Source: a virus
Taxonomy: Duplodnaviria; Caudoviricetes
Strand: one strand, 5' to 3'
Length of the DNA: 30,137 nucleotides
Virus record (IMG/VR): IMGVR_UViG_3300037470_000073
Location: 1-30,137 of that record
The translations under genes were made by a program, and so were the position numbers. Under the pieces are notes generated by a model. It was not told where the DNA came from, made no database searches, and saw nothing but the letters and a program-made list of their open reading frames with translations. Shown in pieces: positions 197 to 29,265 of this stretch. Position 1 is the first letter of the stretch; each line of letters begins with the position of its first letter.

Positions 197-276
197 CGCA
201 AGTGGTTGTTTTGGGTTAATCGATTGTCCCAGGTTAGCGGTTAGGACATCACGTGATGACCAGACACATGGCCTGT

Positions 277-438
277 TCAATCGTGGGATAGAGGAGGTTT
301 GCGACGAGTGACCCGGCGAGGCGGGTCGAGGTTAGGCGATTGCTCCTCTAGGAAAGCACGGTACTCTTGCTCCCATCGATCCGGCTCATCCTCGCGGAGA
401 ACAAGATCGACGGGAGCACGTTGGGACTTGGCAGGCAT
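277..438 (-). CDS. Hypothetical protein (53 aa, MPAKSQRAP...)
   Basis: ATG lies 5 nt after the stop of the 444..1007 gene. The longer 552 start overlaps that gene and is unlikely. Confidence 0.5.
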   Translation of the reverse strand: MPAKSQRAPVDLVLREDEPDRWEQEYRAFLEEQSPNLDPPRRVTRRKPPLSHD

Positions 439-443
439 GATGA

Positions 444-1007
444 TTACTCGGCGGCCTGCCGGTGCGGCTGCGCTGCGATCACATCGTACGCAATCGGGTC
501 GATATCGATTGCGGGCAATGCCACCTTCGGCTTGACCACGACGCCGAACCACTGGCCGGTGCTGGGGTCGAAGGTCCAGCCGCCGAGGTTCTTCGCTTCT
601 TCCGAAGTGATTTGCTGCCAGACGCCTTCCAAATCCTCGACGCCACGCTTGGCGCGGCCGAGGTCAGGGTCTCGATAGTGGACCAGCGCGGCCTTGCGCT
701 CGCCGCGTTCATTCGCCGGGCTGAGGCGCAGAACGCTCTCCTGGTCGGAAAGCAGCGGGCATTCTTCCAGGTGGGCGTGGAAGTCGCACGTGCTGACGAC
801 GTAGGACTGTTCGGCGCGGCCTTCATAGAAGCCGGTCACGACCTTGTGCGGAACCCGCCGCTCGCGGAGGATTTCAGCCATCGCCTGATGGCGCGTCAGG
901 ATTTCGACGGCCGAGAATTCGGGCTGTTCGACGGAGAAGATGGTGAACGAGGTTGCGGCCGTATCCTTGGCCGACCCGCAATAGCTTTCGCTGGGATCAA
1001 TACGCAT
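444..1007 (-). CDS. S-adenosylmethionine lyase (T3 gp0.3/SAMase-like), putative anti-restriction protein
   Basis: Motif order matches T3 SAMase as recalled: FTIFS..RHQAM..LR, TGFYEG..EQS, DQESVL, AALVHY, LEGVWQQI, GGWTFD..GQW. RBS GGGAAGGA. Confidence 0.75.
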   Translation of the reverse strand: MRIDPSESYCGSAKDTAATSFTIFSVEQPEFSAVEILTRHQAMAEILRERRVPHKVVTGFYEGRAEQSYVVSTCDFHAHLEECPLLSDQESVLRLSPANERGERKAALVHYRDPDLGRAKRGVEDLEGVWQQITSEEAKNLGGWTFDPSTGQWFGVVVKPKVALPAIDIDPIAYDVIAAQPHRQAAE

Positions 1008-1096
1008 GGGGATGGTTCCTTCCCTTGGGGTTGCGACTACGGGCCAATAGTAACCCGTAAAGGATGGCGAGGCAAGCCCCGCCGACGATGAGGAGA

Positions 1097-1486
1097 TCAG
1101 CCAGCGCCAATGCCATCACGTGATGGCATCTTGTCGCGATTGTTGTAGAGTGACGAAAGCAGCGCATCGCGGGTCTCGACGGGCTCGCAAGCGAGCTTGG
1201 TCAGGACGGACTTGTACTCGTCCTCGCCCCAAATCCGTTTGGCGATGTCGTGGTTGAATATGAGGCTATCGGCCGACGCGATTTCCTGCGTCAGCGTGTA
1301 GTCGAAGCCATCGTCGCGGCGCTCAGTCAGCACGTAAACGATATGATGCGCGCAGATGGCTTTCTGCACCCCGTAGGCTTCCTTGAGGATAGCCTCGAAG
1401 CAATCGGACGCGCTGTCGTTGCGTGCGTTCTCGTAAGCGGCCTCAAGCCGCAACCCTTTCGGGGTGTAAAATTGATCATTGGGCAT
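1097..1486 (-). CDS. Hypothetical phage protein (129 aa, LIFNHDIAKRIWGE motif)
   Basis: ATG at 1486 is preceded by purine-rich GGAAGAAAGGGA. A palindrome copy lies in the last codons (PSRDG). Confidence 0.75.
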   Translation of the reverse strand: MPNDQFYTPKGLRLEAAYENARNDSASDCFEAILKEAYGVQKAICAHHIVYVLTERRDDGFDYTLTQEIASADSLIFNHDIAKRIWGEDEYKSVLTKLACEPVETRDALLSSLYNNRDKMPSRDGIGAG

Positions 1487-1576
1487 TGTGCGGTTCCCTT
1501 TCTTCCAAATGGTGCTGGATGCAGCGATGGGCTGAAGCCCCATCGGGCTGCTAAATTCCTGCGGAATTGAGCACAC

Positions 1577-1621
1577 CCCTAAACCATCACGCAACTAATG
1601 ATGTCACGTGATGGCAAAGGG
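1577..1621 (-). promoter_or_regulatory. Conserved intergenic stem-loop A of the early operon
   Basis: Minus strand CCCTTTGCCATCACGTGAC-loop-GTTGCGTGATGGTTTAGGG; the stem closes with G:U pairs on the coding strand. Confidence 0.6.
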
Positions 1622-1627
1622 CTGAAT

Positions 1628-2257
1628 TCAGTGCCGCGCGGCCGATGGCGGTTCGGCGTTGAGTGCCCGCTGACGAGCGACGGCTCGGGCCATCAAGGCT
1701 TCGGTGTCGATCCGCTCATACCCGCTGATAGCGTTTGCCGCGTTGATTTCTTGCAGTTGGGTTTCGGCCAGTTCCATCGCCGCGAAGTTGTCGCTCTGGA
1801 CCTTCCCGATCTCGGCCGCCAGTTCTTCGGCATGCGCGCGGGCGATGTCGGAATAGGGATGCCCCGGCTTGGCGTCGTCCTGGTAGACCTTCAGGACTTC
1901 CCCGAGAACCCATCGCGCGATCTGGCCGCCGATGACGACGTACGTGCTGTTGGCCAGCGCCTTGCGTGCGACGGCTTCCAGGTCGAACAGTTGGTCGAGC
2001 CCCGACACCTGCATCAGTTGCAGGACTGCGACGGCGGTTTCGCGCCACGCGTCGGCCGTGTCGACCAATGCGGCGATTTCGATCAACCGATCGAGCGATG
2101 CGGCGATTTCGATCAACTGATCGAGCGATGCGGCGGCCGGCCCCGCCTTGGCTAAAACCTGGGGATCGGAGTTATCAAGCCCGAAGCTGACCAGCGCATT
2201 GCTGATACCTTCGAGCAATGAACGTGCCTCGGAATTCGATTGCACTACGTAACGCAT
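1628..2257 (-). CDS. Hypothetical alpha-helical protein (209 aa) with an internal 10-aa tandem duplication
   Basis: RBS AGGAGG before ATG 2257; AASLDQLIEI/AASLDRLIEI repeat. Confidence 0.8.
   Translation of the reverse strand: MRYVVQSNSEARSLLEGISNALVSFGLDNSDPQVLAKAGPAAASLDQLIEIAASLDRLIEIAALVDTADAWRETAVAVLQLMQVSGLDQLFDLEAVARKALANSTYVVIGGQIARWVLGEVLKVYQDDAKPGHPYSDIARAHAEELAAEIGKVQSDNFAAMELAETQLQEINAANAISGYERIDTEALMARAVARQRALNAEPPSAARH
2068..2135. repeat. 30-bp tandem repeat (~2.3 copies, 1 mismatch)
   Basis: ATGCGGCGATTTCGATCAACYGATCGAGCG x2 plus ATGCGGCG. Confidence 0.9.
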
Positions 2258-2292
2258 TTGATTGGTCCTCCTAGGAACGGTGCAAAAGCGCA

Positions 2293-2365
2293 CCCCTAGG
2301 CCATCACAATGACATCGTCATCGAAAAGCTACGCGTTTTCGATGACATCACGTGATGGCAAAGGG
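2293..2365 (-). promoter_or_regulatory. Conserved intergenic stem-loop B
   Basis: Outer arms CCCTTTGCCATCAC/GTGATGGCCTAGGGG; inner stem GTCATCGAAAA/TTTTCGATGAC. Confidence 0.6.
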
Positions 2366-2453
2366 CTAGGCTTTAACGCCGCGAGGACTAATCCTCGCGA
2401 CCGACATTCATGGCCGATTGGAACCTTGATAATGCCAGAGATAGGCTAGCATG

Positions 2454-2924
2454 TCAACGCCAGTGGTGGAGCGAGGAATAGCCCAGATAAGAGAAGCTTT
2501 CACCCGCTATCCATTGAGCTATTGGCTCCTCCAGATTGTTCAGCACGACAATCCCCGCGTGAGTGTAGACCAGCAAAACCGCGTGATATTCCCCGCGTTC
2601 TATCTTGCCGATGCCGATTTTCATCGCGGAACGCGGGACGCCCAGAGCGAGCAATCGGGCAAGCTTGGTTACCGCGTAATCTTCGCAGTCTCCGGCCTTG
2701 GGTTCCACAGTCCAGACATCTTGCGCGCCATCAGCGCGGTATTCAATGGCCGCATTTACATCCGCATTCACGCGGGCGATAGCGTCAGAGTAGGGAATGA
2801 CGCTAGGTCCGGCGATGCCACTGCATAGGGAAGCGTAGTCACGGCAGAAATGCGCATAACCCGGGGTTGGGATGCGCGGTCCCGCGTCGGTTGGCATGAA
2901 TGCCAATAGGAGAGCTTCAAACAT
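2454..2924 (-). CDS. Transglutaminase-like cysteine peptidase (BTLCP/Peptidase C93, LapG-like)
   Basis: GDCEDYAVTK, HAVLLV and VVLNN motifs; N-terminal PGY..FC....LC; RBS AAAGGAGG. Confidence 0.88.
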   Translation of the reverse strand: MFEALLLAFMPTDAGPRIPTPGYAHFCRDYASLCSGIAGPSVIPYSDAIARVNADVNAAIEYRADGAQDVWTVEPKAGDCEDYAVTKLARLLALGVPRSAMKIGIGKIERGEYHAVLLVYTHAGIVVLNNLEEPIAQWIAGESFSYLGYSSLHHWR

Positions 2925-2950
2925 GGGATTGCCTCCTTTCGGGGTTGCAC

Positions 2951-2993
2951 TCCTAAGCCATCACGCGAGTTGTCATCACGTGATGGCAAAGGG
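2951..2993 (-). promoter_or_regulatory. Conserved intergenic stem-loop C
   Basis: Minus strand CCCTTTGCCATCACGTGA-TGACAAC-TCGCGTGATGGCTTAGGA. Confidence 0.6.
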
Positions 2994-3001
2994 CTGGAAC
3001 C

Positions 3002-3760
3002 TCACTTGCGGGCGGACTTACCCGACTTCTTCGCTTTGCCAGCCGCTGCAATGGCCGCAGCGGTGGGAATGACCGGCGGAGTTTCGGCCGGAGCTTTGAA
3101 GGCCGTTCCGTTCCGAATGGATTGGAGAGCTTCCTTGACCCTCTCCGGTGAAGTGATACCGCCCATAACATGCGTCGGGCCAGCGTTCGGGGCTTCATTG
3201 CCGATATCGACGGCAACCATCTTGAAGCCCGCAAGGCCGCTGACCAAGCCCCGCACTGTGGTAATGCGGTGCTCTCTGGTCATCCGCTTGGTTGCCGCTT
3301 CGATGATTTGAAAAAGGTCATCGAGCTTAACCAGATTGACGGCCGCGAGTGCGACTTGCAGCGGAGACTTGGTTTCTATTGAAACCGTTCCCGCCTTGCC
3401 CTTGCTGCCGCCGGTCTTGACCTTGGCGCGGTGAATCTTGTTCCGGGCCGCGTTGGTTTCCCTGAGTTTGGTCAAGGCCGCTTCCGGCTTGGGGTCGAGG
3501 CCGATAGCTGCGAGTTCCCGGGCCGTATTGTAGGACATGACGCCTTTGAGTTCCACCTTCGCCCAGTCGGCAAAGGAGAGCTTGGCGGTATCCATGTCCT
3601 TTTTGACTTTCCCGAGCGCCATCGCAACGCGTAAGCGCGCATCACGGGCCGTCAGGTCAGCATTCTTCGCGAGTTCCCAGTCCTTGGTGATTGCCAGGGC
3701 TGCGGGCTTGAAGTCCGCGAGTTTGCGCACGTTCTTCGCGAGTTCATTGGGGTTCTTCAT
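3002..3760 (-). CDS. Basic putative DNA-binding protein, DUF3102-like N-terminal region (252 aa)
   Basis: RBS GAAAGGA before ATG 3760. The segment AL.KVK...SFADWAK.EL..MSYNTARELAAI resembles DUF3102; the tail is Lys/Ala-rich. The ORF is solid, the family call is tentative. Confidence 0.6.
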   Translation of the reverse strand: MKNPNELAKNVRKLADFKPAALAITKDWELAKNADLTARDARLRVAMALGKVKKDMDTAKLSFADWAKVELKGVMSYNTARELAAIGLDPKPEAALTKLRETNAARNKIHRAKVKTGGSKGKAGTVSIETKSPLQVALAAVNLVKLDDLFQIIEAATKRMTREHRITTVRGLVSGLAGFKMVAVDIGNEAPNAGPTHVMGGITSPERVKEALQSIRNGTAFKAPAETPPVIPTAAAIAAAGKAKKSGKSARK

Positions 3761-4118: not shown

Positions 4119-4506
4119 GCGGAGTGCCAGGAGGCGCGCTATCTAGCGGGCTTCTGTACTCCAAGCGTATCCTTTCATGGATCAACCCAGGATGCAATAG
4201 CCTAGTTTCGCTTGTCGGGTTGATTTTTCGGCTTTGCCATCACGTGATGACAGTCCGCGCCGATCCCTCTTATTCTGTACCCAGAAGATTGTTCCCGAGC
4301 CGAGCAACCGCGTTTCCCCTGAAACCTGGGAGGACATGCCCGACAATCCGTCTAGGTTCGCGCTAGGCGAGTGCTGCGCTAGCCCGCATCCTAGTATCCA
4401 AAAGCACCGCAGTTCAGGTTCAACCCTAGCGCATAGCCGCTTGGCATAGCCATTGCATAGCGTAGCGCATTATCGACTATCGATAGGTCATCACGTGATG
4501 CCCGAG

Positions 4507-4574
4507 GCTGGCACGCGCCTTGCATACGCACGCCCCATGCCGTCGATACGCTGGCACGCGCCTTGCATACGCAC
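4507..4574. repeat. 25-bp perfect direct repeat x2 (GCTGGCACGCGCCTTGCATACGCAC)
   Basis: Copies at 4507-4531 and 4550-4574. Confidence 0.95.
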
Positions 4575-4671
4575 AATTCATGCCACCCCACCCCCACTTC
4601 GGGGCTACCCCCGGCCGTCGCTGGCGTACCCACTACTGTATCGAAAAATTAAAAATGGAGCCCAAAGCTGG

Positions 4672-4741
4672 TGCATACCCGGGTATGCAGTGGACATCAC
4701 GTGATGACCGTAGATTATACCTCTCTAAGAGAGGTTAATCT
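4672..4741. repeat. Three stacked palindromes: TGCATACCCGGGTATGCA, a GNCATCACGTGATGNC copy, and AGATTA(T)ACCTCTC-TAA-GAGAGGTTAATCT
   Basis: Located at 4672-4689, 4693-4708 and 4712-4741, directly upstream of the late promoter. Confidence 0.85.
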
Positions 4742-4747
4742 TTATTT

Positions 4748-4777
4748 TTGACTCGGCAACCCCGCCAGCGGTATAAT
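4748..4777 (+). promoter_or_regulatory. Sigma70-type promoter of the packaging/structural operon
   Basis: TTGACT-18 bp-TATAAT with an AT-rich tract upstream. Confidence 0.8.
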
Positions 4778-5443: not shown

Positions 5444-5451
5444 GACATCCC

Positions 5452-7086
5452 GTGATACCCGACAAGCGCGGTCCTGGAAATCCAAACGGCAGCTTGAACG
5501 GCCCCTTGGGTCCTGACGCGCTATTAGCTAAGCAGATAGCTAAGTTCCACGACGACCCTCTTGGGTACGTTATGTTCAACTGGCCTTGGGGGATGCCGGG
5601 CGTCCTCGATACGGTGCCGCTTCCCGAGGAGTATCGCTCGCGCTTCAACAGCGAATACGGCCCGGATCGTTGGGCCTGCAAGTTTCTCGATGACTGGGGT
5701 AAAGACCTCCGGGCGAACCCGTTCGATGGCAAGCGCGCCGTGAAGGCCCTGCGCTACGCCATCAAGTCGGGACACGGTATCGGCAAGTCGGTGATGGTGG
5801 CATGGATAATCAAATTCATCTTAGATACTCGGCCTATGTCGCACGGTACTGTGACCGCGACAACCGCCGACCAGCTAAAAGCAAGAACGTGGGCCGAGCT
5901 AGGAAAGTGGCACCGTCTGTCGCAAACCGCCGGGTGGTTCAACTACCAGGACACGCGCGGAAACATGGTGCTAAAGCATCGTAAGTTCGGCATGGAATGG
6001 TTCTGCCAGGGCGTCACCTGTAAGGCCGAGAATGCTACTGCGTTCCAGGGCCAGCACGCGGCCAACTCCACTTCCTTCTACGTTTTTGACGAGGCATCCG
6101 GTGTCCCCGACCCGATCTTCGAGGCCCGCGAGGGCGGTCTCTCGGATGGCCAGCCAATGGTCTTCGACTTCGGCAACCCCAACTTCAACACGGGCTACTT
6201 CTACGAAAACTGTCGGGGCAAATACAGGTTCGATGAGCATGGTAATAAGCGCATCGACGTACGCTCAGTGGATAGCCGGGAAGTTTACATCACCCAGAAA
6301 GACAAGCTAAATGAAGACATTGGTATTTACGGGATCGACAGCGACTTCATCAAAGTCCGTATTCTGGGCGAATTCCCCTCGGCGGGCGATCTCCAGTTCA
6401 TCCCTTCCGCTGATGTCCTACTCGCCCAGACGAGGCCCCTCTCAGAAAACCGGCTCTTTCCACGCACAATTGGTGTTGACTGCGGGGGAACCGGCTCGAA
6501 CCCCGATGAAACTGTCATATACAGCGTAAAGGGCATGGACGCCCGGTCTTTCCCGCCCGTGCGGATGAAAGGCTGGGACCAGACGCAGATTGCTAACGCT
6601 GTCATCCAGGAGTTCCTGAAGTTCGCGGCGCTAGGCGATCCGGTGACTATGATCTTCGTGGACAGCACCGGCGGTTACGGCGGCGGTGTGGTGTCGCAGC
6701 TTCGCGCGTTGGGCTATCCGGTCATCGAGGTAGGTTTCGGCCTCCGGGCGACCGATAACCGCCATTACAAATACACCGTGGACGAGTTGTGGGGAAAGGG
6801 CAAGCAGGCGATCAAGGACGGGCTGTGCTTGCCGGGCAGCGATACTCAGGACGGCGATGATATCTTCGCTCAGCTTACGCAGCGGCAGTTCGGGTACACG
6901 CTTAGCGACCAAATCCGCTTGGAGACTAAGGATGACATGAAGGCGCGCGGCATCTCGTCTCCGGATATAGCCGACGCGTTGTTCTTGAACTTCTACATGC
7001 CGGTTGCCCTGCGCAACGGCTTACCACAAAACGCTGGAATGCAGATCACAGAGTACGATCCATACGCAAACGTGAGGGCAGATTAA
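5452..7086 (+). CDS. terL: Terminase large subunit
   Basis: Walker A SGHGIGKS, Walker B VFDEA, GNP motif, nuclease GVD and SPDIADAL. Confidence 0.96.
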   Translation: MIPDKRGPGNPNGSLNGPLGPDALLAKQIAKFHDDPLGYVMFNWPWGMPGVLDTVPLPEEYRSRFNSEYGPDRWACKFLDDWGKDLRANPFDGKRAVKALRYAIKSGHGIGKSVMVAWIIKFILDTRPMSHGTVTATTADQLKARTWAELGKWHRLSQTAGWFNYQDTRGNMVLKHRKFGMEWFCQGVTCKAENATAFQGQHAANSTSFYVFDEASGVPDPIFEAREGGLSDGQPMVFDFGNPNFNTGYFYENCRGKYRFDEHGNKRIDVRSVDSREVYITQKDKLNEDIGIYGIDSDFIKVRILGEFPSAGDLQFIPSADVLLAQTRPLSENRLFPRTIGVDCGGTGSNPDETVIYSVKGMDARSFPPVRMKGWDQTQIANAVIQEFLKFAALGDPVTMIFVDSTGGYGGGVVSQLRALGYPVIEVGFGLRATDNRHYKYTVDELWGKGKQAIKDGLCLPGSDTQDGDDIFAQLTQRQFGYTLSDQIRLETKDDMKARGISSPDIADALFLNFYMPVALRNGLPQNAGMQITEYDPYANVRAD

Positions 7087-7316: not shown

Positions 7317-7331
7317 AGAGGGCATCACGTG

Positions 7332-9023
7332 ATGGCCGAGTACGAGAAGATCGACAAGACCTCCCGCAAATACTACGACCGCTTGGTGGCGGCGCTGAAG
7401 GACGAGCTTCAGTCGTATATCCCATGGTATCGGGAGCTAGCGGAATTCATTACCCCCCGTCGAGGTAGGTTCTTGATGACCGACATTCAGCGTCGGGGCA
7501 ACAAAAACTCCTACAAGTCCATCATCAATTCCATCGCTTCGCAGGCCCACAAGGTTTGCCGCGCGGGCATGCTCAACGGCGGGCTGCCGCGTAACCGGCC
7601 GTGGTTTAAGTTGCAGACGCCTGACCCGGATATGATGGAGTTCCAGCCTGTCAAAATATGGATCAACAAAGTCGAGTTTCTGATCCGTCGTGTCCTCGAT
7701 GATAGTAACTTCTACGCCCAAGCTTCGAACCTAATCGGCGAGCTTATCTCGTTCGGCACTGGGTTCATGTCGCATGTCGATGATTTCTATGACGTGGCCC
7801 GGTTTTATACCCACACGGCTGGCAGCTACATGATTTCGCAGAACGGCCGACAGGAGATCGATACGGTCGTGCGCGAGTACGAGCAAACCACCGAGGGCAT
7901 CATCTCAGAGTTTGGCATCGATAACGTATCCATGCCGGTGCGCAATGCTTACGATCAAGGAAACTACATGCAGTGGTTTCCAATCGTCCACATCATCCAT
8001 CCCAACCAGGACTACGAGCGAAGTAGCAAAAGCAATCGGAAGAAGGCGTTCCGTTCCTGCTATTATGAGGTTGGGCAGCCCGACAAGGGTAAGTTCCTGC
8101 GCGAGAGCGGTTTCGAATACTTCCCTGGGTATGTTCCGCGATGGGACACAACCGATGGCGACATTTACGGGTCAGACAGCCCGGCCATGACGGCGCTGGG
8201 CGACATCAAGGGCATCCAGATCAAGGAAAAGCGCGCTGCGCAGGGGCTCGACAAGTTGATCGCGCCGCCGCTGGGAGGTCCGCCCTCGGTAAAGGCTATT
8301 CCGGTTTCGGGGTTACCGGGCGGCATGAGTGCGTATGATGCGGGTCCCGGCAATCAGAAGATCGAGAGCCTGTACAATATCGATGGAACCGGCATCGCGG
8401 CTATGATGCAGAACATTGATCGTGACGAGCGGAGGATTAAGGATGCTTTCTTCAACGACCTTTTCAAAGCGATCACGGATATGGAGGGCATTCAGCCGCG
8501 TAATGAGTTGGACCTTACAAGCCGTAACCAGGAGCGGTTACTACAAATCGGACCAGTTATCCATCGCTTGGATGACGATTTCCTTGGCGGGGTTGTGAAG
8601 CGCATCTTCTTGCAGCTTCTGAAAGCTGGAGCGCTACCGCCGCCGCCGGAAGAATTGCAGGGGCAGACGCTGATGCTACGCTACGTCTCGCCGCTGGCTA
8701 TGGCCCAGGAAGCTATTAACACCGGCCCGACCACGCAGTTTCTGAGCTTCGTCGGCATGCTGGGTTCGGCTAGGCCGGATGCTTGGGACAAGGTGGACGT
8801 GGATGCAGCTATCGATGACCAGGGCAATGCGTTCGGCGTTAATCCGCGCATCATCCTGCCCAGCGAGATCGCTAACCAGATTAGGCAGGATCGCATTGCT
8901 CAGCAGCAACAGCAGGCGCAGCTTGCGGCTGGCGAACAGGTCGCTGGCATAGCGAAGGATGGGGCCTCGGCTGCCGCTTCGGTAGCCCAGGCAGAGGGAG
9001 GGTCTAATGGCGGAAGACGATGA
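7332..9023 (+). CDS. Portal (head-tail connector) protein, T7/BPP-1 type
   Basis: RPWFKL, FGTG, PRW....IYG.SP and YVSPLAMAQ motifs; size and position fit. The ATG is part of a palindrome copy. Confidence 0.93.
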   Translation: MAEYEKIDKTSRKYYDRLVAALKDELQSYIPWYRELAEFITPRRGRFLMTDIQRRGNKNSYKSIINSIASQAHKVCRAGMLNGGLPRNRPWFKLQTPDPDMMEFQPVKIWINKVEFLIRRVLDDSNFYAQASNLIGELISFGTGFMSHVDDFYDVARFYTHTAGSYMISQNGRQEIDTVVREYEQTTEGIISEFGIDNVSMPVRNAYDQGNYMQWFPIVHIIHPNQDYERSSKSNRKKAFRSCYYEVGQPDKGKFLRESGFEYFPGYVPRWDTTDGDIYGSDSPAMTALGDIKGIQIKEKRAAQGLDKLIAPPLGGPPSVKAIPVSGLPGGMSAYDAGPGNQKIESLYNIDGTGIAAMMQNIDRDERRIKDAFFNDLFKAITDMEGIQPRNELDLTSRNQERLLQIGPVIHRLDDDFLGGVVKRIFLQLLKAGALPPPPEELQGQTLMLRYVSPLAMAQEAINTGPTTQFLSFVGMLGSARPDAWDKVDVDAAIDDQGNAFGVNPRIILPSEIANQIRQDRIAQQQQQAQLAAGEQVAGIAKDGASAAASVAQAEGGSNGGRR

Positions 9024-9351: not shown

Positions 9352-10040
9352 ATGACGGGGTTGTAAATTCGGGTGCGGTTGATCCGGCCGCGCAGGCGGC
9401 TGGCGGCGTACAAGAGACCGGCGATCAGGCATCACGTGATGCCCAGACTGCGGAAGCGGCTAAGGCAGCCGAGGCTGCCAAAGCGGCGGAAGGTAACCTG
9501 ACGCCCGAACAGAAAGCGGCGAAGGAAGCCGAAGATCGAGGTAAAGCTCTAGCCGAGGCCCGTAAGGCTAACGCGCCGGAGAAGTATGCGGATTTCAAGC
9601 GCAACGCTGAAGTTCAGGTAGACGCCGAAATGATGGCGGAAGTCGTGCCCGTGCTTCAGAAGTTGGGCCTAAACCAAGATGAAGTGCAGGGCGTGCTGGA
9701 TTTGCACGATAAGGCGATCCTGCGCAATAAGGCCGAAGCCGATAAGGCTTGGAGCACGCTGCAAACGCAGTGGAAGGAAGCGGCGGAGAAGGACGCGCGC
9801 TTTGGCGGAGAGAAATTTACGGAGAATAAAGCTGGTGCGCTTCACGCTTTGAAGCATATCGGCGGCCAGCCGTTGGTGGAAGCAATTGAAGCGGCGGGTT
9901 ATGTGGATCACCCCGAGATTATTCACCTGGGCCATGCCATCAGGAAATTGATCGGGGATGACACTCTCAACTTCGGTAAGGGTGGTGGGAGTGGGTCTGA
10001 CGCGTTGAGCAAGCTTTTCCCGTCGCACGACGCGAAGTAA
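9348..10040 (+). CDS. Capsid scaffolding/assembly protein
   Basis: Low-complexity N-terminus, APEKY, LGLNQD, W, DHPEII; directly upstream of the capsid gene. Confidence 0.82.
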   Translation: MNDGVVNSGAVDPAAQAAGGVQETGDQASRDAQTAEAAKAAEAAKAAEGNLTPEQKAAKEAEDRGKALAEARKANAPEKYADFKRNAEVQVDAEMMAEVVPVLQKLGLNQDEVQGVLDLHDKAILRNKAEADKAWSTLQTQWKEAAEKDARFGGEKFTENKAGALHALKHIGGQPLVEAIEAAGYVDHPEIIHLGHAIRKLIGDDTLNFGKGGGSGSDALSKLFPSHDAK

Positions 10041-11572: not shown

Positions 11573-11602
11573 GGGCGGGGGCATCACGTGATGTCCTCGC
11601 CC
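11573..11602 (+). promoter_or_regulatory. GC-rich hairpin built around a palindrome copy, after the cement gene
   Basis: GGGCGGGGG-CATCACGTGATG-TCCTCGCCC with G:U pairs on the + strand; no U-tract. Confidence 0.55.
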
Positions 11603-14368: not shown

Positions 14369-14379
14369 GGCATCACGTG

Positions 14380-14979
14380 ATGGCTGAGAGCATCGTTTCC
14401 ATTTGCAATATGTCGTTCGACCACTTGGGGTCGGATATCATCGAGGCGCTATACCCGGTGGAGAAGACGCCAAACTCCAAGCGCGCCAAGCGTTGGTTCG
14501 ATATCTCGCGCCGCGCTGTCCTGGAAGGCTTTGACTGGAATTTTGCCCGCCGCCAGAAATTGTTGAACCTCTCGTCCGATGATGCTCCCGCCGACTGGCA
14601 GTACCGCTATGACTGGCCTGCTGATTGCGTAGCGCCTCGCCGCATCTGGAACCCACTGGGGGAAAACGCTCCCGCCATTCCGTATACCCAGCTTATGGGT
14701 TCGAACGGCGTCACGCGCACTATATTGACCAACATGCCAGAAGCAGAGCTAGTATATTCGTTCGACCAGACGGCGGTAGAGCTTTTCCCCGCCAGCTTCA
14801 CTACGTTGCTTAGTTATATGCTCGCGGCCAACATGGGATACGCCATCACGCGCAAGCAGGGGGTTCGCGACGAGATGCTGAAAGCGTACTGGAATTCGGC
14901 GCGGTTTATCCCGGGCACCGACGCTAATCAGCAGGTCCCGAAAAACGAGCGCGATGCGGACTGGATTACGGGCAGGTAA
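14380..14979 (+). CDS. Tail tubular protein A / adaptor
   Basis: V.ICN...LG, WNFARR, WQYRY.WP.DC, F...L...LA motifs. The ATG lies inside a palindrome copy. Confidence 0.85.
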   Translation: MAESIVSICNMSFDHLGSDIIEALYPVEKTPNSKRAKRWFDISRRAVLEGFDWNFARRQKLLNLSSDDAPADWQYRYDWPADCVAPRRIWNPLGENAPAIPYTQLMGSNGVTRTILTNMPEAELVYSFDQTAVELFPASFTTLLSYMLAANMGYAITRKQGVRDEMLKAYWNSARFIPGTDANQQVPKNERDADWITGR

Positions 14980-17900: not shown

Positions 17901-18300
17901 GGAGGGAGTTCTGACCCTACCGGGGGGGCGTCTAGCTAGCAGGTTGCACGCCGGATTGCCGTACCTCGTCACCGTTGAGACCCTGAACATCAACGCGCCG
18001 CAGACGCAGATGCAGGGCCGCGTCGTCAGCGCCAGCGCGATCAACGTGATGGTCGAGGGCTCCCGGGGGTTTGTGGCTGGCGTACCGCCCGCAGAAGGCG
18101 GAACCCGGCCGCGATACAGTGACGTTAAGTGGCGCGTGGATGAGGACATGGACCAGCCGACCAGCCTGTTTACCGGGGTTAAGCGCATAATCCTAGAGAA
18201 CGCGTGGAACACAAACGGCAGGTTCTTCTTTCAGCAGAAATATCCCCTGCCGATGAACATCTTGTTCGTCAGCCCCGAAGTGGACCTCAGCGATGCCTAG
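14980..18300 (+). CDS. Tail tubular protein B / nozzle with inserted domains
   Basis: SF..G...P...GR.D, N....HGG...R.GT, RLIPFQF, FAQRRVFGG and Q.V.GW motifs; three FCCH-like repeats and one discoidin-like insert. Confidence 0.9.
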   Translation: MAQILKTSFAKGIVGPAVYGRTDLDLYSAAVKDARNCVVRPHGGISARQGTRFVAPVKDHDYAPRLIPFQFKTTDTYIIEFGDEYVRFIRNGASVAEDAFAISDITQASPAVVEAVGHDFDNGDEVAIDAAEGMTQVNNRRFVVANVSGDTFELTDQVTGADIDSTAFDAYASGGTASRVYTLASPYAIEDVWRIKYVQNKDVITLAHPDYPIYELTRTGHTSWSFSIPTFSPGQAAPTSIAITPNTTGAVTYQYQVTAFDKTTLEESLPGLDTGGATVITGATLANPVVFSSAAHGFSVGDEVALTISAGLLGLNGVRGLITATTTDTFSLAIDTTDYDIAAGLVAASYDNPGGQGDRTAFLAVTSSITPAAGTLSNLVDGGTGANSTDSIDLPGTGATAIIAGDYFRFQFSSPDRYIDQIQILSSSIPAHGVWQIQGSDNGSTWTNYTAGGNFTWNQASQTVSLSGVPATGHEYWRMVYISGGANWANNWFSEVTFRIYGVGDTYGSVARTFKKITNGHATANNTITWDAVADAGGYNVYKLDNGVYGFIGTTSALTFTDDNIQADATDTPPQARNPFENDNNPGAVGYFAQRRVFGGTNDNPETSYYSQTGNPANMSVSAPRKDDDAITASLVAQSVNDIRHYVSMSDLIIFTGAAEWRVNSGPDSSFSAETIKQKPQTNWGSSHLRPLLVGPVTLFVEPNGSRVRSLNYDFPNDLYNSNEMSILAYNLLESYYIVDWTFAYAQDQRMHAVRNDGKMVCMTFQRDQEVVGWTYWDTLGKFEAVSALRTVTSGTADEIYMVAKRVVDGQTVRYIEVQQGRTVTDVRDVFHVDCGASYDDPMPITNLVRQDLGMGVINYLVFSAGHGLSNGDIVDISGVEWEPEVDEYGTETQPNVINGRRYEVANAATDTFTLTGGNKPELDDLSEDEFPVYADAGFIRRAGASFSGFQHLEGRTDVVVLADGDVFENLTVTEGVLTLPGGRLASRLHAGLPYLVTVETLNINAPQTQMQGRVVSASAINVMVEGSRGFVAGVPPAEGGTRPRYSDVKWRVDEDMDQPTSLFTGVKRIILENAWNTNGRFFFQQKYPLPMNILFVSPEVDLSDA

Positions 18301-18754
18301 CTACCGCATATTGCCCCCAACTCCCGCGCTCGTGGAAGCCCTGGCGGCGCGCCTTGGCGCGAAGGATCGGGATGAGATAGCGGCTACTGGGTATGACACT
18401 GCGCTGGAGGGGCTTATGGTCTCCGTCGAGGCATCACGTGATGCCCTGACCCTCCTGGCGGACGGAGAACCCGTAGCCATGGCCGGGGTGTCCGACTGGG
18501 GAGCCATCAGCACGACCGGGGTTCCTTGGGCGCTGACTTCCGACAACATCCGGGAGCACGCTTTGCCGTTTCTCAAATCCGCCAAAATTCTTGCTGATCA
18601 CTGGCTAAAAGAGTATAATCGGCTTTGTCAAGTAGTAGACGAGCGAAACGTAGACGCGATGCGCTGGATGGAGTGGGTAGGGTTTGAGAAAAGAGGCCGC
18701 CACTTCTTGGGTCCGGATCGAATGCCGTTCGCCATGTATGAAATGAGGGCCTGA
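18293..18754 (+). CDS. Putative acetyltransferase-fold internal virion protein (T7 gp13-like position)
   Basis: D.DEI, G.PWAL, VDERN..A.RW.EW.GF motifs. Confidence 0.75.
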   Translation: MPSYRILPPTPALVEALAARLGAKDRDEIAATGYDTALEGLMVSVEASRDALTLLADGEPVAMAGVSDWGAISTTGVPWALTSDNIREHALPFLKSAKILADHWLKEYNRLCQVVDERNVDAMRWMEWVGFEKRGRHFLGPDRMPFAMYEMRA

Positions 18755-19326: not shown

Positions 19327-21749
19327 TGGCTGAAGTTCCGACGATCAAAGTTCCGCAGGTAAAGACGGAAGCCTACCGGCCGAACTACCAGTCGGGCAAC
19401 GGCGCGACCGAGGCTGCGTTCGGCGGCAATCAGGGCCGCCAGCTAGACATCGGCGGGCGCGCGGTGATGGAAGCGTCCGATGCGCTTGGACGCGCGTCCT
19501 TACAGATCGCGGAGCGCCGGAACGCTGTCGGTCGCGCCAGCGCTGTTACGGAATTCGAGACCTGGGCTTCGGAGGCTTGGCTTGGAGCGCAGACCGAGGG
19601 CGACATCACAGACCCGGCTCAGGTGCAGGCGTTCGGCGCATCGCTAACCGCCAAGGCTAAGGAAATCGCCGCGAAGCATAACGAGGGCTACGGCCCCGCC
19701 AGCAGCGAGCAGCTTAATTCCATGCTGGAGGGACGGCGCGGCGACTTCATGGGTAACGCTGCCTCCACAGCGGCTGAAGCTAGCCAAGCCGTGATCGCGC
19801 AGACCCTGAGCGGTTCGCTCAGCAAGTACGCGTCCCAAGTTACCGCTGATCCTTCCAGCCTTCAGGACAACATGGCCGCGTGGAACCGGGAGGTAGACAA
19901 TTACGCTTCCGCGCTCACTCCGCAGCAAGAAGCCATGTACCGCAAGAACGGTGCGGCGGCTTTCATCGGCGGAACTATCGACAATACGCTGTACCAGCCT
20001 AACGGCGACCTCCTGGTGCAGAAGATGCTGCAATCTAACCCGCAGCTTATGGACGTGTTCACCGTCGAGCAGCAAGAGCAAATCCGGCAGCGCATCCAGG
20101 TCACCGCCAACGCCAACGCCGAGCAGCGCAACAAGGTCTATACGTTGTCGCCGGGCTCCAAGCTGGTGAACGGCCAGGGTGAGACCATCGCCTACTCGCC
20201 TACGATTGAGAAGGTTGAGCGCACCCCCGCGCAGACCGCGCTGGAAAATCTCGGGACCTACACAGCCATCACCGGAAAGCAGCCGACTGAGGCTATGGTT
20301 GCGGCGGCGTTGAACGTTAACGCGCCCAGCGGCGGGCAAACGCTAGCCGATCAGGTCACCGATTTTAATCAGGCGTACGCCCTTATCAACGGCGGGGCTG
20401 CCCCGTCGAAGCAAGTCCAGACTGACTTCCTCAATACGGCGGCTGGCATGCCGCAGGACCCCGCTCGCAAGCTCAACGAGCTTTCGGCTATACGCGAAGG
20501 GCTCAAGTTGCCACCGCTTAGTAACACCCAGGTTGACGCCCTGCTTGGCGTAAAAGAAGATACCACTAAGACCTTGGCAGAAAAGATGGCGGAAGCTAAG
20601 AAGGTGGTCGGCGAGATGAGCCGAGAGGAGGCAGCTAAACTTGGCGGCTTCTTCGTAGCCCCGGTCGAGCAGGAGAATAACAACACCTTCGGCGATAGCA
20701 TCACCGGCCGCACGTTGGATATGTTCGTGCAGATGGCTCCGGCGTATGCGACCGGCCAGACCACGCCCGATCAGGACCGCCAGTTTGAGATCGCGGCTTG
20801 GTCATACGCCATGACCCCAATCGGCCAGGACGTTAACCCGTACACCAAGGAGACCACGTATCGCTACCGCCCGCTGCCGCTGCACGTGTCGCAGGCTCTG
20901 GAGCAGCGCGGGGTTAAGTGGCGTTTGCCAAGCCCCGGCGAGCCGCCCCCGCAGCCGATGCTAGGCGATCCGAATAGCGCCGCGCCGTCGAGCGAGCCCG
21001 ATCCTAACGACCCGGCGGAAATGGGCGACGAGAGCACTAACGCTGGCCCTGGCGATCCGGCGCAACCCGCCATGGCGGACGTAGGCCCGCCGACCAAGGC
21101 GAATGCTCAGCAGCAGGCTCAGGTTGCTGATCCTGCGGCATCACGTGATGCCCAGCAGCCCGCCGTGCAGCCCGACCCCATGGCCGGTGCGAGAACCAAG
21201 AACGAAACCTTGCTTGAGCTTGGAGCGCGCAACACCGGCCCCATATCCGGTATGGCTAAGCAGTTGCATAAAATCCCGGGTTTAGGTAAGGGCGTCGGCG
21301 GCGAAGCTACGCAGGCCGGGAGCGATATCAACGCCCTGAAGAACGACCTTGTGCGCGTGTTGCAAAACAACCCTCGCTACGCCGAAGGTGAGCGCAAGCA
21401 AATCATGGACGAGATCGACGTGAGCACCAAGTTCGTTGATGACCCGCAGCGGTACATCGACAACGTTATGGGTCTGCGCAAGTCGCTCCTGACGCGGCTG
21501 GAGAATGAGCGCAAGACGGCTGAAGTTTCTGACATCGGCTCCGAGGAACGCGTCAGGGCTATGAATACCGTCAACGCCATCGAAAACTTCCTGGGTGTTC
21601 TTACGCCTCCGGTGTTCGACAGCGAAGAAGAAGCACGCGTTTGGGCTAACCAGCAAGAGCCCGGCACCCCGATGGTGCTGAAGAAAGGCAATACTTACCA
21701 GCTTGGGTACAGTAAGAAAACGGGCGCAGCCGCGCCAACGGGGCAGTAA
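19326..21749 (+). CDS. Internal virion (ejection) protein, 807 aa
   Basis: MA.VP start, Ala/Gln-rich helical composition, position after the gp14-like gene. Confidence 0.72.
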   Translation: MAEVPTIKVPQVKTEAYRPNYQSGNGATEAAFGGNQGRQLDIGGRAVMEASDALGRASLQIAERRNAVGRASAVTEFETWASEAWLGAQTEGDITDPAQVQAFGASLTAKAKEIAAKHNEGYGPASSEQLNSMLEGRRGDFMGNAASTAAEASQAVIAQTLSGSLSKYASQVTADPSSLQDNMAAWNREVDNYASALTPQQEAMYRKNGAAAFIGGTIDNTLYQPNGDLLVQKMLQSNPQLMDVFTVEQQEQIRQRIQVTANANAEQRNKVYTLSPGSKLVNGQGETIAYSPTIEKVERTPAQTALENLGTYTAITGKQPTEAMVAAALNVNAPSGGQTLADQVTDFNQAYALINGGAAPSKQVQTDFLNTAAGMPQDPARKLNELSAIREGLKLPPLSNTQVDALLGVKEDTTKTLAEKMAEAKKVVGEMSREEAAKLGGFFVAPVEQENNNTFGDSITGRTLDMFVQMAPAYATGQTTPDQDRQFEIAAWSYAMTPIGQDVNPYTKETTYRYRPLPLHVSQALEQRGVKWRLPSPGEPPPQPMLGDPNSAAPSSEPDPNDPAEMGDESTNAGPGDPAQPAMADVGPPTKANAQQQAQVADPAASRDAQQPAVQPDPMAGARTKNETLLELGARNTGPISGMAKQLHKIPGLGKGVGGEATQAGSDINALKNDLVRVLQNNPRYAEGERKQIMDEIDVSTKFVDDPQRYIDNVMGLRKSLLTRLENERKTAEVSDIGSEERVRAMNTVNAIENFLGVLTPPVFDSEEEARVWANQQEPGTPMVLKKGNTYQLGYSKKTGAAAPTGQ

Positions 21750-24655: not shown

Positions 24656-24693
24656 GTTATAATTGGGCATCACGTGATGCCTAGGGAGATAAA

Positions 24694-25789: not shown

Positions 25790-26410
25790 TTGGCCTCAGT
25801 TCTGAACGTGAACGCGTTAGCGCCGCAATTTAATACGGAACTTCCGACTGGTGGTTGGGACCCTGCTGACGCGGGTGGTGGTGGTGGCAATACCGTAACC
25901 GGCGGCGGTTACATTCTGGACCGTACTCTTGGCGCTGGCGAAGGCAGTGGCGTGTCGCTCATCGGTCACAGCCAAGCGAGCGGCGGCAAGTTCTACGCCG
26001 AGTTTGTGCCTACATTTGCCGGTATTATGAGCGTCGGTTTAGCTATTAGCACCTGGAACAACGAATTCGACGAGCCCGGTGATGCCGCCAATACGTGGGC
26101 TATTCGGCAGAACGGTGACACTTTTACCGCTAACTCAGGTACGGCACATGCTGGCAATGCCTTCGTATCCGGGGAAACGGTTGGGATTGCTGTCGATTTC
26201 ACCGCCGGGGAAGTTTGGTTCCGCGACGGGGCCGGTTGGACCTCGGGCGACCCGGCAGCGGGTACTTCCCCCCAATATTCCGGCATCGGGGCCGGGACCT
26301 ATTATTTGGTGGCGGCGACTTACACCACCGCCGATGAAGTTCTTTTGAAGCCGGGCAGCGGAACTGCGTTCACCTACACGCCGCCCGCCGGTTTCTCAAA
26401 TTGGGGTTAA
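25790..26410 (+). CDS. SPRY/B30.2-like domain protein (putative receptor-binding tip)
   Basis: GKFYAEF, VGLA, GETVGIAVDF..GEVWF, F.Y.PPAGF; TTG start with RBS GGGAG. Confidence 0.78.
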   Translation: MASVLNVNALAPQFNTELPTGGWDPADAGGGGGNTVTGGGYILDRTLGAGEGSGVSLIGHSQASGGKFYAEFVPTFAGIMSVGLAISTWNNEFDEPGDAANTWAIRQNGDTFTANSGTAHAGNAFVSGETVGIAVDFTAGEVWFRDGAGWTSGDPAAGTSPQYSGIGAGTYYLVAATYTTADEVLLKPGSGTAFTYTPPAGFSNWG

Positions 26411-26415
26411 TCCAA

Positions 26416-27191: not shown

Positions 27192-27577
27192 TGGCTTTCC
27201 TAGCTAAGCCTCTGATCAAGTGGGGTATCATCGCTGCCGTGGCAGCCGCCCTTGTAGCAACAGTTGTGATCCAGTCGCTGCGGTTGGATAATGCCAAGCT
27301 CGAACGCCAGAACGCTCTGGACGATCTAGCCCAAGCCGAAGACATTAACCGGGGACTGGCCGAAGACATCCGCAACCTAGTGATCTTGCGCCAGATGGAT
27401 GCGAAGGCCACGGCCGAGGAATTGAAACGCACCGAGGATAGGAACGTATCCGTCGAGAAGTTAAAGAGGGAAATGCGAAATGCTGAAGGCGCTAATGAGC
27501 TTGCTGGTCCTTACTTCGATGATCTTGGTGACCGGCTGCGGAACCTCGACGCGGGTCCTGACCAAAAGCCAGATTGA
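27188..27577 (+). CDS. i-spanin (Rz-like)
   Basis: N-terminal transmembrane segment then coiled coil; ATGA overlap with the endolysin. Confidence 0.8.
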   Translation: MMAFLAKPLIKWGIIAAVAAALVATVVIQSLRLDNAKLERQNALDDLAQAEDINRGLAEDIRNLVILRQMDAKATAEELKRTEDRNVSVEKLKREMRNAEGANELAGPYFDDLGDRLRNLDAGPDQKPD

Positions 27578-27764
27578 GTATGTCTTCGAGCCGGAGGTTT
27601 TCCAGCACTGCCGCGCTCGACCGCTCCCGCCCCCGCGAGGAGCTCCGCGCTCTGCTTGGTCCGACTACGCGGCCGACCTCCACGCCTGGGGCGCCGATTG
27701 CGAGGCCAAGGTCAAGGGCGGCGCTGATTGGGCTGCTGCTCATCGCATCGTCATTCACCGCTAG
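27480..27764 (+). CDS. o-spanin (Rz1-like lipoprotein), overlapping the i-spanin
   Basis: Lipobox LVTG-C, Pro-rich, further Cys residues; the start may be a few codons later. Confidence 0.8.
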   Translation: MLKALMSLLVLTSMILVTGCGTSTRVLTKSQIEYVFEPEVFQHCRARPLPPPRGAPRSAWSDYAADLHAWGADCEAKVKGGADWAAAHRIVIHR

Positions 27765-27782
27765 CTGTGAGCTACCAACGCT

Positions 27783-27813
27783 AAGGGGGCCTAGCTTTCG
27801 CTGGCCCCCTTTC
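27783..27813. terminator. Intrinsic terminator between convergent operons
   Basis: AAGGGGGCCTAGC-TTTC-GCTGGCCCCCTTT. Confidence 0.75.
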
Positions 27814-27857
27814 ACGCACGACACGCCCCCGATCATGCTCCGGTTTAAGACCCGGTT

Positions 27858-28358
27858 TTAGCCGCCCACCATTTGAGCTTTACGATCCGCCAGCCTTCTA
27901 ACCGTCTTGCGCTTCAACCCCAGTACCACCGGCACGTTAGCTTTGCGCCGTTCAAGCTTACTTCTACGGAGCGGCACCGGATCGTTGGTGGCGTAGCAGC
28001 CGCTGTTGCCATCACGTGATGTCAACGCCTCCACAACCTGCGTCTCCCCCGCGTCTTCGTCTTTGAGCATTCGCTCCAGACGCGCCAAGGCGTTCCAGGC
28101 GATCTGGCCTGCATGCTTCACCCCGCCATCTTCCTCGTTAACCGGGCCGCGCAGGGCTTCTTCCAGCAGATGCTTGCCGATCTTTTCCAAGTAGTAGTCG
28201 GCGGACTGGTCAAGATAGGTCATATCCCCCATGACGACCTTGTATTTCTTGACCCCGAATTCCGAGATGCGAGCAAGCTCGGCCATGGCGCGGGGGAACC
28301 GCAGGAAGGCCCCCAGCATCGGCTGCGTCTCCTTGGGAATGGCTCGCCCCTTCGTCAA
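27858..28358 (-). CDS. dATP/dGTP diphosphohydrolase-like protein (DUF5664)
   Basis: FPRAMAELARISEFGVKKY, KH and HAGQIAWNALA motifs; TTG start (TTGA overlap) with RBS GGGAG. Confidence 0.72.
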   Translation of the reverse strand: MTKGRAIPKETQPMLGAFLRFPRAMAELARISEFGVKKYKVVMGDMTYLDQSADYYLEKIGKHLLEEALRGPVNEEDGGVKHAGQIAWNALARLERMLKDEDAGETQVVEALTSRDGNSGCYATNDPVPLRRSKLERRKANVPVVLGLKRKTVRRLADRKAQMVGG

Positions 28359-28495
28359 ACCACAACTCCCACAGCCATTGAAACGCCGAACAGCGAGAAC
28401 GCGATTATATACTCGCCTGCTTCCACGTAGCCGGTATCCCAGGCAAACCATTGCTCGGTCTGGAAACCGATAGAGAACACGATATGAAACGCCAT
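28355..28495 (-). CDS. Small hydrophobic hypothetical protein (46 aa, MAFHIVFSIG...)
   Basis: Absent from the ORF track. TGATG coupling to the HD gene and TTGA coupling to the next gene fill the gap exactly. Confidence 0.6.
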   Translation of the reverse strand: MAFHIVFSIGFQTEQWFAWDTGYVEAGEYIIAFSLFGVSMAVGVVV

Positions 28496-29265
28496 CAGAA
28501 TTGGTATCCTTCCTCGTCAAGACCCGCCATCCGGGTCCACTTGTGATACCGCTTGAGCCACTCAAACTTAGCTCGCGTCGGCTGCCAAAGCTGGATCGTG
28601 ATCCCGTCCAGCGGCGGGTACTTGTCGTACGCCCACTCAAGCTGCGAGCGTTGAACGGCGCGCTTCTCGTGGTAGACGATCCGCACGTCGAGTTCCTTGA
28701 TCTTGTCCTTGAGGCGCTCGTATATCTTGGAATAGCCGTACTTGGCGGACAATACACCGTGCCACTTCTCTTCCAGCGGCTTGTAGCAGGGGCGTATGGC
28801 CGCCTTCAACGCCCTATGCTGGTCCTTCAGGATGAACTCAGGGGCGTCATGAAAAAGCACCGCAAGGCAGGCCACTGGGGACCATCCCAACTCTTGCTCC
28901 GCATAGTCGGCTAGTAGGACGCTATGTTCCGCCACTGAGTAATGGATTTCGACTGGGATTTGATCGCCGTAACGACCAGCTTTCGCAAGTCCGTTGGCAA
29001 CATCTCCAACATCGAAATCGCCGGGACGGGGGTCTTCGACGTATATTTCCCGCCCCGACAAGGATTGCGTCCACTCGCCAACGCGTTCACCAGTTTTGTC
29101 GATGTCATCCTTGTCCTCCAGATCGATCCGGCCATCAACCGGCTTACCGCCGTTGCCGGTCCAACTCATATCGGGGACATCACGTGATGCCCGAAGCGCC
29201 CGGCAGCCCGACAAGTGATCGGTTGTGCCGCCGCAGTAGACGCAGTGTGCGCCCATTAAGCCCAT
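28495..29265 (-). CDS. HD-domain phosphohydrolase (YfbR/YfdR-like 5'-deoxynucleotidase) with N-terminal Cys/His extension
   Basis: RY..Q...HYSVAEHS, LFHDAPE..D, D......EK; RBS GAGGAGG. Confidence 0.85.
   Translation of the reverse strand: MGLMGAHCVYCGGTTDHLSGCRALRASRDVPDMSWTGNGGKPVDGRIDLEDKDDIDKTGERVGEWTQSLSGREIYVEDPRPGDFDVGDVANGLAKAGRYGDQIPVEIHYSVAEHSVLLADYAEQELGWSPVACLAVLFHDAPEFILKDQHRALKAAIRPCYKPLEEKWHGVLSAKYGYSKIYERLKDKIKELDVRIVYHEKRAVQRSQLEWAYDKYPPLDGITIQLWQPTRAKFEWLKRYHKWTRMAGLDEEGYQF

Follow-up and report, generated by a model that had tools for sequence, protein, structure and literature searches.

Genome-wide systems of dispersed repressor sites are known from temperate phages. In phiC31 the repressor c binds conserved inverted repeats (CIRs). 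The phiC31 genome (NC_001978) contains 16 dispersed palindromes of 16 bp, 13 of which read CTACTCACGTGAGTAG and 15 of which are intergenic. Here we describe an arrangement of similar layout in the virus record IMGVR_UViG_3300037470_000073. The stretch that was analysed (30,137 nt, hereafter the window) is the entire record, such that all searches of the window cover this record only, and it is a partial genome of a BPP-1-like podovirus. It carries a dispersed 16-bp palindrome with the same TCACGTGA core as the phiC31 sites, and a gene at 3002-3760 on the minus strand encodes a candidate for the protein that reads them. The carriers of the palindrome are podoviruses that encode a DNA polymerase and a primase of their own and in which no integrase was detected.

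Genome-wide, mostly intergenic 16-bp palindromes around TCACGTGA are common to phiC31 and to the clade of the window. In phiC31, sites occupy junctions analogous to those of the clade, ahead of terL and of the portal gene and following the capsid and fibre genes, and are also present at the phiC31 repressor gene. Because the 8-bp core is identical, phiC31 is a closer precedent than the first-pass annotation had claimed. The arms differ (CTAC..GTAG in phiC31), leaving 8-9 of 16 positions identical to the window sites. Repressor c is unrelated to the candidate binder (hhalign probability 0.14%, E 0.43; no HMM match). Furthermore, phiC31 is temperate and has an integrase, whereas no integrase was found among the accessory proteins scanned from clade relatives. 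The phiC31 sites show no even spacing and include one intragenic copy, while the clade sites are evenly spaced and frequently lie wholly within coding DNA (61 of 146).

A second point of comparison is provided by the stoperators of cluster A phages. According to the accessible part of PMC6550527, 20-30 of these sites are spread over each genome, lie mostly off promoters and block elongation, and their motif variants track variants of the repressor (Rep). Like stoperators, the clade sites are many, genome-wide and mostly not promoter-associated. Stoperators are, however, asymmetric and oriented with transcription, whereas the clade sites are palindromic, and stoperator phages are temperate with an integrase or parABS, neither of which was detected in the clade. 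The start-associated sequences (SAS) and extended SAS (ESAS) of cluster K phages comprise 11-19 repeats per genome that are tied to gene starts, conserved across subclusters and of unknown function, as far as described in the accessible part of PMC3203893. SAS is an asymmetric 13-mer and ESAS consists of paired 17-bp repeats with a variable spacer, while the clade site is a fixed palindrome that is kept deep inside genes. Overall, the layout resembles the phiC31 and stoperator systems, but binder, arms, symmetry and lifestyle exclude membership in either.

Chromosomal parS is likewise a 16-bp palindrome with a TCACGTGA centre, and the clade consensus GGTATCACGTGATACC equals canonical parS at 12 of 16 positions. 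This likeness would be explained if the sites mimicked parS and loaded host ParB (and SMC) onto the phage DNA, which we consider very unlikely. Compared with parS as printed in the accessible part of PMC5450999 (TGTTTCACGTGAAACA), the sites of the window and of the relative G001 are identical at no more than 8-10 of 16 positions, and across six genomes not one site comes within 2 mismatches. The arms are fixed phage by phage, though the same part of that source describes chromosomal parS as common across species, and parS sites are clustered while the clade sites are dispersed. The motif also occurs at background frequency in 151 genomes of the likely host class (see below). Pfam searches returned no ParB or ParA match among the 53 open reading frames (ORFs) of the window, an incomplete genome, nor among 41 and 113 proteins of relatives or 141 members of the candidate binder family. 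With window sites that match parS this poorly and neither gene in the window or in the 113 accessory proteins of four near-complete relatives, the parS-based partition function considered earlier is not supported.

In the window CATCACGTGATG occurs in 16 exact copies, the first at 247 and the last at 29178, compared to none in each of 100 dinucleotide shuffles. All 16 fit the extended form GNCATCACGTGATGNC (245..29191). Allowing for two mismatches provided three more matches, at 877, 1600 and 5444 (chance mean 0.11). Those at 1600 and 5444 were accepted by the clade matrix, while the candidate at 877 was below threshold and was discarded, resulting in a total of 18 sites. Nine of these lie in the first 5.5 kb. 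The counts agree with the first-pass annotation, which had listed 16 perfect copies, two variants and nine sites in this region. Beyond it, between 5444 and 29176, the sites are separated by gaps of 1168-4061 bp (coefficient of variation 0.32, P=0.001 vs random placement).

A scan of viral sequences for the motif returned 83 loci, mainly with single matches, among them G001 with 11 and G002 with 3 copies. Both are distantly related to the window (TerL 47-49%, capsid 58-61%). Further relatives were obtained by a TerL profile search and a motif-first scan (210 loci from 44 of 64 parts). From the 29 records that were fetched and scored, which include close kin or fragments of one phage, 23 carry 3-31 sites, G012, G016 and G022 carry 1-2, and G019, G021 and G036 carry none. 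The clade motif reads G-[G/N]-N-A-TCACGTGA-T-N-[C/N]-C. The TCAC of its core is almost invariant across the clade, and the arms are specific to each phage: GGTA in most, GGGA in G007 and G010, GGTC in G008, GACA in G001 and GNCA in the window. The centre is relaxed in G020 and G088 and reads CAGCTG in G018. The window has only 0-8 20-mers in common with seven relatives, and none of these 20-mers contains the motif, which argues for an old conservation and not for recent copying. As judged from these comparisons, the motif belongs to the whole phage clade and appears to be anciently conserved. The suggestion of the first-pass annotation to look for the motif and for conserved site positions in related phages was thus borne out.

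In a TerL tree (a quick IQ-TREE run of the top 70 rows without bootstrap, with the window and G036 on long branches) all 17 motif-positive rows fall within one 31-row clade (support 100). The same clade holds 14 rows below the motif cut-off, including a 7-row subclade with 0-1 sites. The motif-first scan provided 22 multi-copy contigs, 18 of which encode the clade capsid or the candidate binder, while three short fragments and one 221-kb record have neither. The dispersed palindrome was absent from relatives of at least 4 kb that were found through the capsid (79 of 80 loci). Among loci found through Bbp16, several copies were present only in those of G001 and G006 and one copy in L387; the clade was reached via TerL. 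Three further records, G004 (6116-6191), L747 (889-1525) and L816, were rejected as clade members, having the motif in tandem arrays and no clade genes. These arrays, with periods of 31-33 bp in L747 and L816 and ~10 bp in G004, look unrelated. No replacement palindrome was found in G036 (L485-L487), which has a 13-bp tandem repeat near 26385.

Candidate host chromosomes, the other place where the first-pass annotation had proposed to count the motif, contain it at background level only. The estimate for GTDB was ~1300 stretches (from 6 of 64 parts scanned) compared to ~2200 by chance (a hand estimate). In 151 genomes from the class of a Bradyrhizobium record we counted 21 unclustered sites, in 16 genomes, compared to ~14 by chance (also estimated by hand). 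An enrichment in hosts was therefore rejected. No account of the motif (CATCACGTGATG, ATCACGTGAT), the clade or the protein was found in the literature searched, which covered few subscription papers and no supplements, where motif tables may be held.

The placement of the sites was analysed for 146 sites from 13 genomes, for which genes were called with a simple custom caller, such that some starts are approximate. Intergenic DNA is touched by 85 sites, where 16 would be expected, and the interval -80..+10 around gene starts contains 64 sites (15 expected). Particular junctions are used repeatedly: sites are found at the start of the fibre gene in 15 of 16 cases, of terL in 12 of 20 and of the portal gene in 12 of 21, compared to 0 of 19 for the major capsid and 0 of 16 for terS. 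Of the 61 wholly coding sites 57 are in the frame reading x-S-R-D/E, a bias to be seen against the fact that one of the three frames is stop-barred. Conversely, 91 of 177 S-R-D/E tripeptides are written with the motif codons (1.4% expected). In the gp13-like gene an internal site is present at an aligned codon in 12 of 16 relatives, and the encoded peptide tracks the DNA variant (SRET, SRHT, SRGT), while motif-free relatives have other residues there. Both the codon bias and the peptide that follows the DNA variant are indicative of selection acting on the DNA, by which, on this sequence evidence, sites inside genes appear to be kept through codon choice.

Many sites end directly 5' of a Shine-Dalgarno sequence, and the early modules with an extra half-site as well as the site after Bbp16 (see below) could form longer stems. 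This would suit RNA hairpins or DNA cruciforms that serve as processing sites or terminators. The two half-sites, however, vary independently: symmetry was seen at variable columns in 110 of 236 cases, where independent half-sites would give 117.9 +/- 5.9, and the N pair flanking the window palindromes is Watson-Crick in 5 of 16. Hairpin selection was therefore rejected as a general explanation, and we regard this reading as hardly credible. The preference of the first-pass annotation for a dimer reading double-stranded DNA is in line with this result.

Along the genomes of the group the palindrome recurs every 1.5-4 kb. In 6 of 9 genomes the sites are spaced more regularly than expected from uniform placement, and in 7 of 9 more regularly than under a gene-junction null. 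A structural role of the same protein and sites would fit this observation. Dimers would nucleate at a site every few kb, from which Lys/Ala-rich tails bridge or spread to form a phage-specific nucleoprotein coat. Such a coat would compact the replicating genome, mark it as self and shield it from host restriction, from translocating nucleases or from the phage's own. It would also explain why the sites are placed at least cost, overlapping start codons or coding DNA, and it suits the basic composition of the family (see below), the lack of integrase, CI-type repressor and Par genes among the scanned accessory proteins, and the anti-defence genes held by early regions (SAM (S-adenosylmethionine) lyase, Tad2-like, Acb2/Tad1). 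On the other hand, only 11 of 33 genes longer than 2.8 kb contain an internal site, the largest gaps reach 8.8 kb, and the flanking of the binder's own gene by sites (see below) points to an effect on transcription. As the main function of the sites we consider the coat a serious though rather doubtful alternative.

Relative to promoters the sites show little preference for the core. An overlap with 61 sigma-70-like core promoters was rejected, as only 3 sites overlap one (5.3 expected), and a mild enrichment was seen at -100..-40 (11 sites compared to 4.9 expected). Site density was higher in the early region in 7 of 9 genomes.

The candidate binder (3002..3760, minus strand) was obtained by clustering the genes of relatives. 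It has 252 residues, a net charge of +21, a helical core (1-117) and a Lys/Ala-rich tail; for the family the median net charge is +16 and lysine plus alanine make up 32%. Its core of ~105 residues defines 789 clusters at 50% identity for E<=0.001 and 446 at 1e-10. Neither Pfam nor PHROG has a family for it, no homologue of the core was found in 50,697 GenBank phage records or 72,556 plasmids, and sequence searches of the PDB were empty. The core model is all helical (pLDDT 93.5), with R42, F63, W66 and R100 invariant, and helices 63-70 and 77-88 form a putative helix-turn-helix. The core is further predicted to form a homodimer, with an ipSAE of 0.77 compared to 0.00 for the best control, pLDDT of at least 85 and runs that agree in at least 97% of contacts. 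Among solved structures 20 of 30 homodimers attain this ipSAE mark, as does 1 of 23 monomers, counts that are only rough, the alignment being our own. The modelled interface is formed by helices 18-58, and helix 77-88 is not listed as a part of it.

Fold searches with the whole protein gave a best E of 0.79 (Foldseek, PDB) and 0.044 (viral) and a best Z of 6.5 (VIA). With the core only, the best Foldseek E was 0.63 and the best VIA-align hit had a Z of 6.8 (rmsd 2.9, 68 aligned), and ParB was not among the matches listed. As all matches were generic helical bundles, the fold is neither assigned nor proven new. Weak matches to DUF3102 (PF11300), with E 0.0015 at best, were obtained for 5 of the 141 family members but not for the window protein. 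An ESM feature look-alike of the binder (score 0.91, 150 shared features) belongs to a cluster 42% of which carries DUF3102, for which no function was found in the literature searched. Two paralogues per genome are present in G007, G008, G062 and L791; in the three long genomes one is near the primase or helicase and one near terS, and they may differ in role.

Several observations connect this protein to the sites. All 15 fetched genomes with a strong homologue (G085 is not among them) carry 5-31 sites. Among 50 relatives found through head genes strong matches occur in 6 records, each of which has sites. In the 26 near-complete ones of this set, G007 has both, while the other 25 have no strong homologue and at most one site. 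All four 44-49 kb multi-copy contigs of the motif-first scan encode the protein. G020, which was reached via TerL, encodes it together with one strict site, and 14 relaxed sites were found afterwards. In G036, the sister of the window in the TerL tree, there are no sites, and the binder homologue is weak, truncated and degenerate (163 residues). G010 and G017 have sites and no strong homologue; both are fragments. The sites also tend to bracket the gene: 8 of 17 binder genes have a site at most 150 bp away on both sides, compared to 6 of 232 similar-sized genes (Fisher p=1.8e-7). Finally, residue 82 in helix 77-88 varies with position 2 of the site. Where the site has G at this position, the best paralogue has K (14 of 14 genomes), while in the three without it the residue is E (window) or Q (two contigs; p=0.0015, kinship uncorrected). 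The two contigs with Q are those with a homologue that were obtained in a search for phages with A at site position 2. Given the co-occurrence, the flanking, the predicted dimer and the covariation, the phage-encoded binding protein postulated by the first-pass annotation now has a concrete candidate, and we conclude that the 3002-3760 protein probably binds the sites, as a dimer.

The sites could instead be read by another phage protein (TerS, a virion or a replication protein) as packaging or replication marks, with the 3002-3760 family sharing only the clade. All motif-positive rows lie in one 31-row TerL clade, so co-occurrence may be kinship, and TerS is present in most clade members. Such a reader would, however, leave the flanking, the residue-82 covariation and the joint loss in G036 unexplained, and the motif-free relatives share the same head and replication genes. 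We therefore consider it unlikely.

For the function of the bound protein we tentatively favour, with slightly less than even confidence in binder and function together, a stoperator-like two-way roadblock to host RNA polymerase. Dimers on sites every few kb would block the polymerase in both directions, with the two 77-88 helices of the dimer presumably reading the two half-sites. Being made early, the binder would limit its own gene through the flanking sites and damp the site-dense early (host-takeover) operon. It would further throttle read-through into the terL, portal, tail and fibre genes but leave the start of the major capsid gene free. Such a genome-wide brake could serve the timing of the lytic programme or a holding state in phages without a detected integrase. 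We place the roadblock first because the sites bracket the binder gene, are crowded in the early operon, occur within operons and are absent from the capsid start. A roadblock is preferred over an operator because the sites do not cover sigma-70-like cores and sit inside operons.

A number of points weigh against the roadblock and its assignment to this protein. Even spacing and basic tails fit the structural coat as well or better, and the phiC31 sites, unlike those of the clade, show no even spacing (P=0.19). A block on late genes would hardly be useful to a phage that lacks a dormant state, and no integrase turned up. In 2 of 9 genomes site density is lower in the early region. At the binder gene of the window a site is close on one side only, 22 bp off its end, the one on the side of its start being 484 bp away. 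From the 15 genomes in the co-occurrence 8 were chosen by the motif, and kinship confounds the result, as any clade-specific gene would co-occur. The covariation amounts to about two independent events, since L748 and G001 are one phage, L791 probably belongs to the same branch and the second paralogue of L791 has K. The missing third of the window genome may hold a second binder paralogue as well. The helix-turn-helix was called from secondary structure and conservation. Roadblock and coat are not mutually exclusive roles.

Even spacing would also be expected from a DNA-entry ratchet, in which protein expressed from the DNA that enters first would attach to the sites one by one as they emerge from the capsid and thereby draw the genome in. 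The phage is a podovirus without a detected RNA polymerase gene, its binder gene is the second of the early operon beside a likely genome end, and G007, G008 and G062 retain a paralogue near terS. In most relatives, however, the main copy is beside the primase or helicase and away from the presumed leading end, and a ratchet would hardly be expected to have sites 2-8 kb apart, making this mechanism quite improbable. A broader possibility, which we put forward with reserve, is that these phages form a lytic podovirus clade with sequence-addressed chromatin: dimers would sit on self-marks placed every few kb, some of them within codons, and basic tails would form a coat that sets the phage DNA apart from that of the host for protection, compaction or entry. 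As a part of this, and to be taken just as cautiously, the site/helix pairs specific to each phage could act as a lineage barcode.

The clade provides a third system converging on the TCACGTGA core, beside parS and phiC31. A large unannotated protein family, with no cultured member, Pfam family or recognised fold, gains a concrete candidate target and a prediction that links residue 82 to site position 2. A roadblock, if true, would suggest lytic deferral without an integrase, and a coat, if true, would represent a novel means by which phage DNA is marked as self. The natural specificity variants would also offer orthogonal 16-bp binders.

The individual sites of the window were located by matrix and motif scan. 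In the early region, the first site (245..260) is intergenic, 3' of the SAM lyase gene, and the next (1112..1127) lies in the final codons of the early gene 1097-1543, where it reads ..PSRDG... A module that combines a site with an additional half-site and has AGCCCTTT ahead of it on the minus strand is repeated at 1584-1625, 2300-2368 and 2957-2996. Its first copy (1584..1615) is intergenic and consists of the variant site 1600-1615 and a half-site at 1585. The second (2300..2359; site 2344-2359, half-site at 2300) is ~70 bp downstream of a promoter-like match TTGACA-17-CATTAT (2457..2429, minus) and is able to form a long stem. The third (2957..2987; site 2972-2987, half-site at 2957) is immediately beyond the stop codon of the candidate binder. 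Two sites (4236..4251 and 4487..4502) occupy the non-coding region separating the early (minus) and late (plus) units, and another (4693..4708) has its centre ~83 bp upstream of the start predicted for a late promoter-like match TTGACT-18-TATAAT (4748-4777).

Among the late genes, the variant site at the terS/terL junction (5444..5459) contains the GTG start of terL, and sites overlap the starts of the portal (7321..7336) and of tail tubular protein A (14369..14384). The site at 24666..24681 lies directly 5' of the Shine-Dalgarno sequence of the tail fibre and is kept in 15 of 16 relatives. Sites within genes are found in the scaffold/protease gene (9428..9443, ..ASRDA..), the gp13-like internal virion gene (18430..18445), an 807-residue ORF of the internal virion block (21137..21152) and the dATP/dGTP diphosphohydrolase gene (28008..28023). 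The site following Bbp16 (11580..11595) is the middle of a longer GC-rich inverted repeat, and the last one (29176..29191) is 5' of the phosphatase gene, which is on the minus strand.

The late genes of the window run on the plus strand from ~4750 to 27861 and comprise terS, terL, portal, GP7 capsid, Bbp16, tail tubes, internal virion proteins, fibre and lysis genes. The nearest cultured capsid is that of BPP-1 (52%). The early genes run leftwards from 4054 on the minus strand and include the SAM lyase and a BTLCP peptidase, and nucleotide-metabolism genes are on the minus strand at the right end. To recover the rest of the genome, loci were searched with the binder, which yielded only the query's own genome or nothing. 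Near-complete relatives encode Prim-Pol, an SNF2 helicase, DUF2800, an Enc34-type single-stranded DNA-binding protein and a DNA polymerase. No integrase, ParA or ParB was found in 113 accessory proteins of G007, G020, G062 and G063, a scan that covered proteins of at least 60 residues outside the core genes; HTH_3 gave one sub-threshold match, in G063.

GANTC occurs 3 times in the window compared to 65 expected, and several 6-bp palindromes are absent. In light of what is established for CcrM, this depletion makes an alphaproteobacterial host likely for the window phage. G008, G013 and G062 show no GANTC depletion, and G062 encodes an MT-A70 methyltransferase.

The S-adenosylmethionine lyase family gene (444-1007, minus; Pfam E 8e-9), also present in G020, is likely an anti-restriction gene. 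Other anti-defence domains in relatives are Tad2-like (L451:10188-10733, in G006) and Acb2/Tad1 (L710:15713-15952, in G063). The early gene 2454-2924 (minus) has a BTLCP transglutaminase-like cysteine peptidase domain (E 4e-25), and tail tubular protein B (14980-18300) an E1_FCCH-like domain (Pfam E 1e-13). At 27858-29265 (minus) the dATP/dGTP diphosphohydrolase adjoins a nucleoside monophosphate phosphatase, a pair that hints at editing of the nucleotide pool or at a modified base. The non-coding stretch that separates the divergent units, where the genome end may lie, has two copies of a ~25-bp repeat (4507-4575). Five GAGCCCGA/TCGGGCTC repeats (56, 88, 97, 109, 182) and a GC hairpin are found at 50-190; since in relatives the primase lies beyond the early genes, these are possibly origin iterons.

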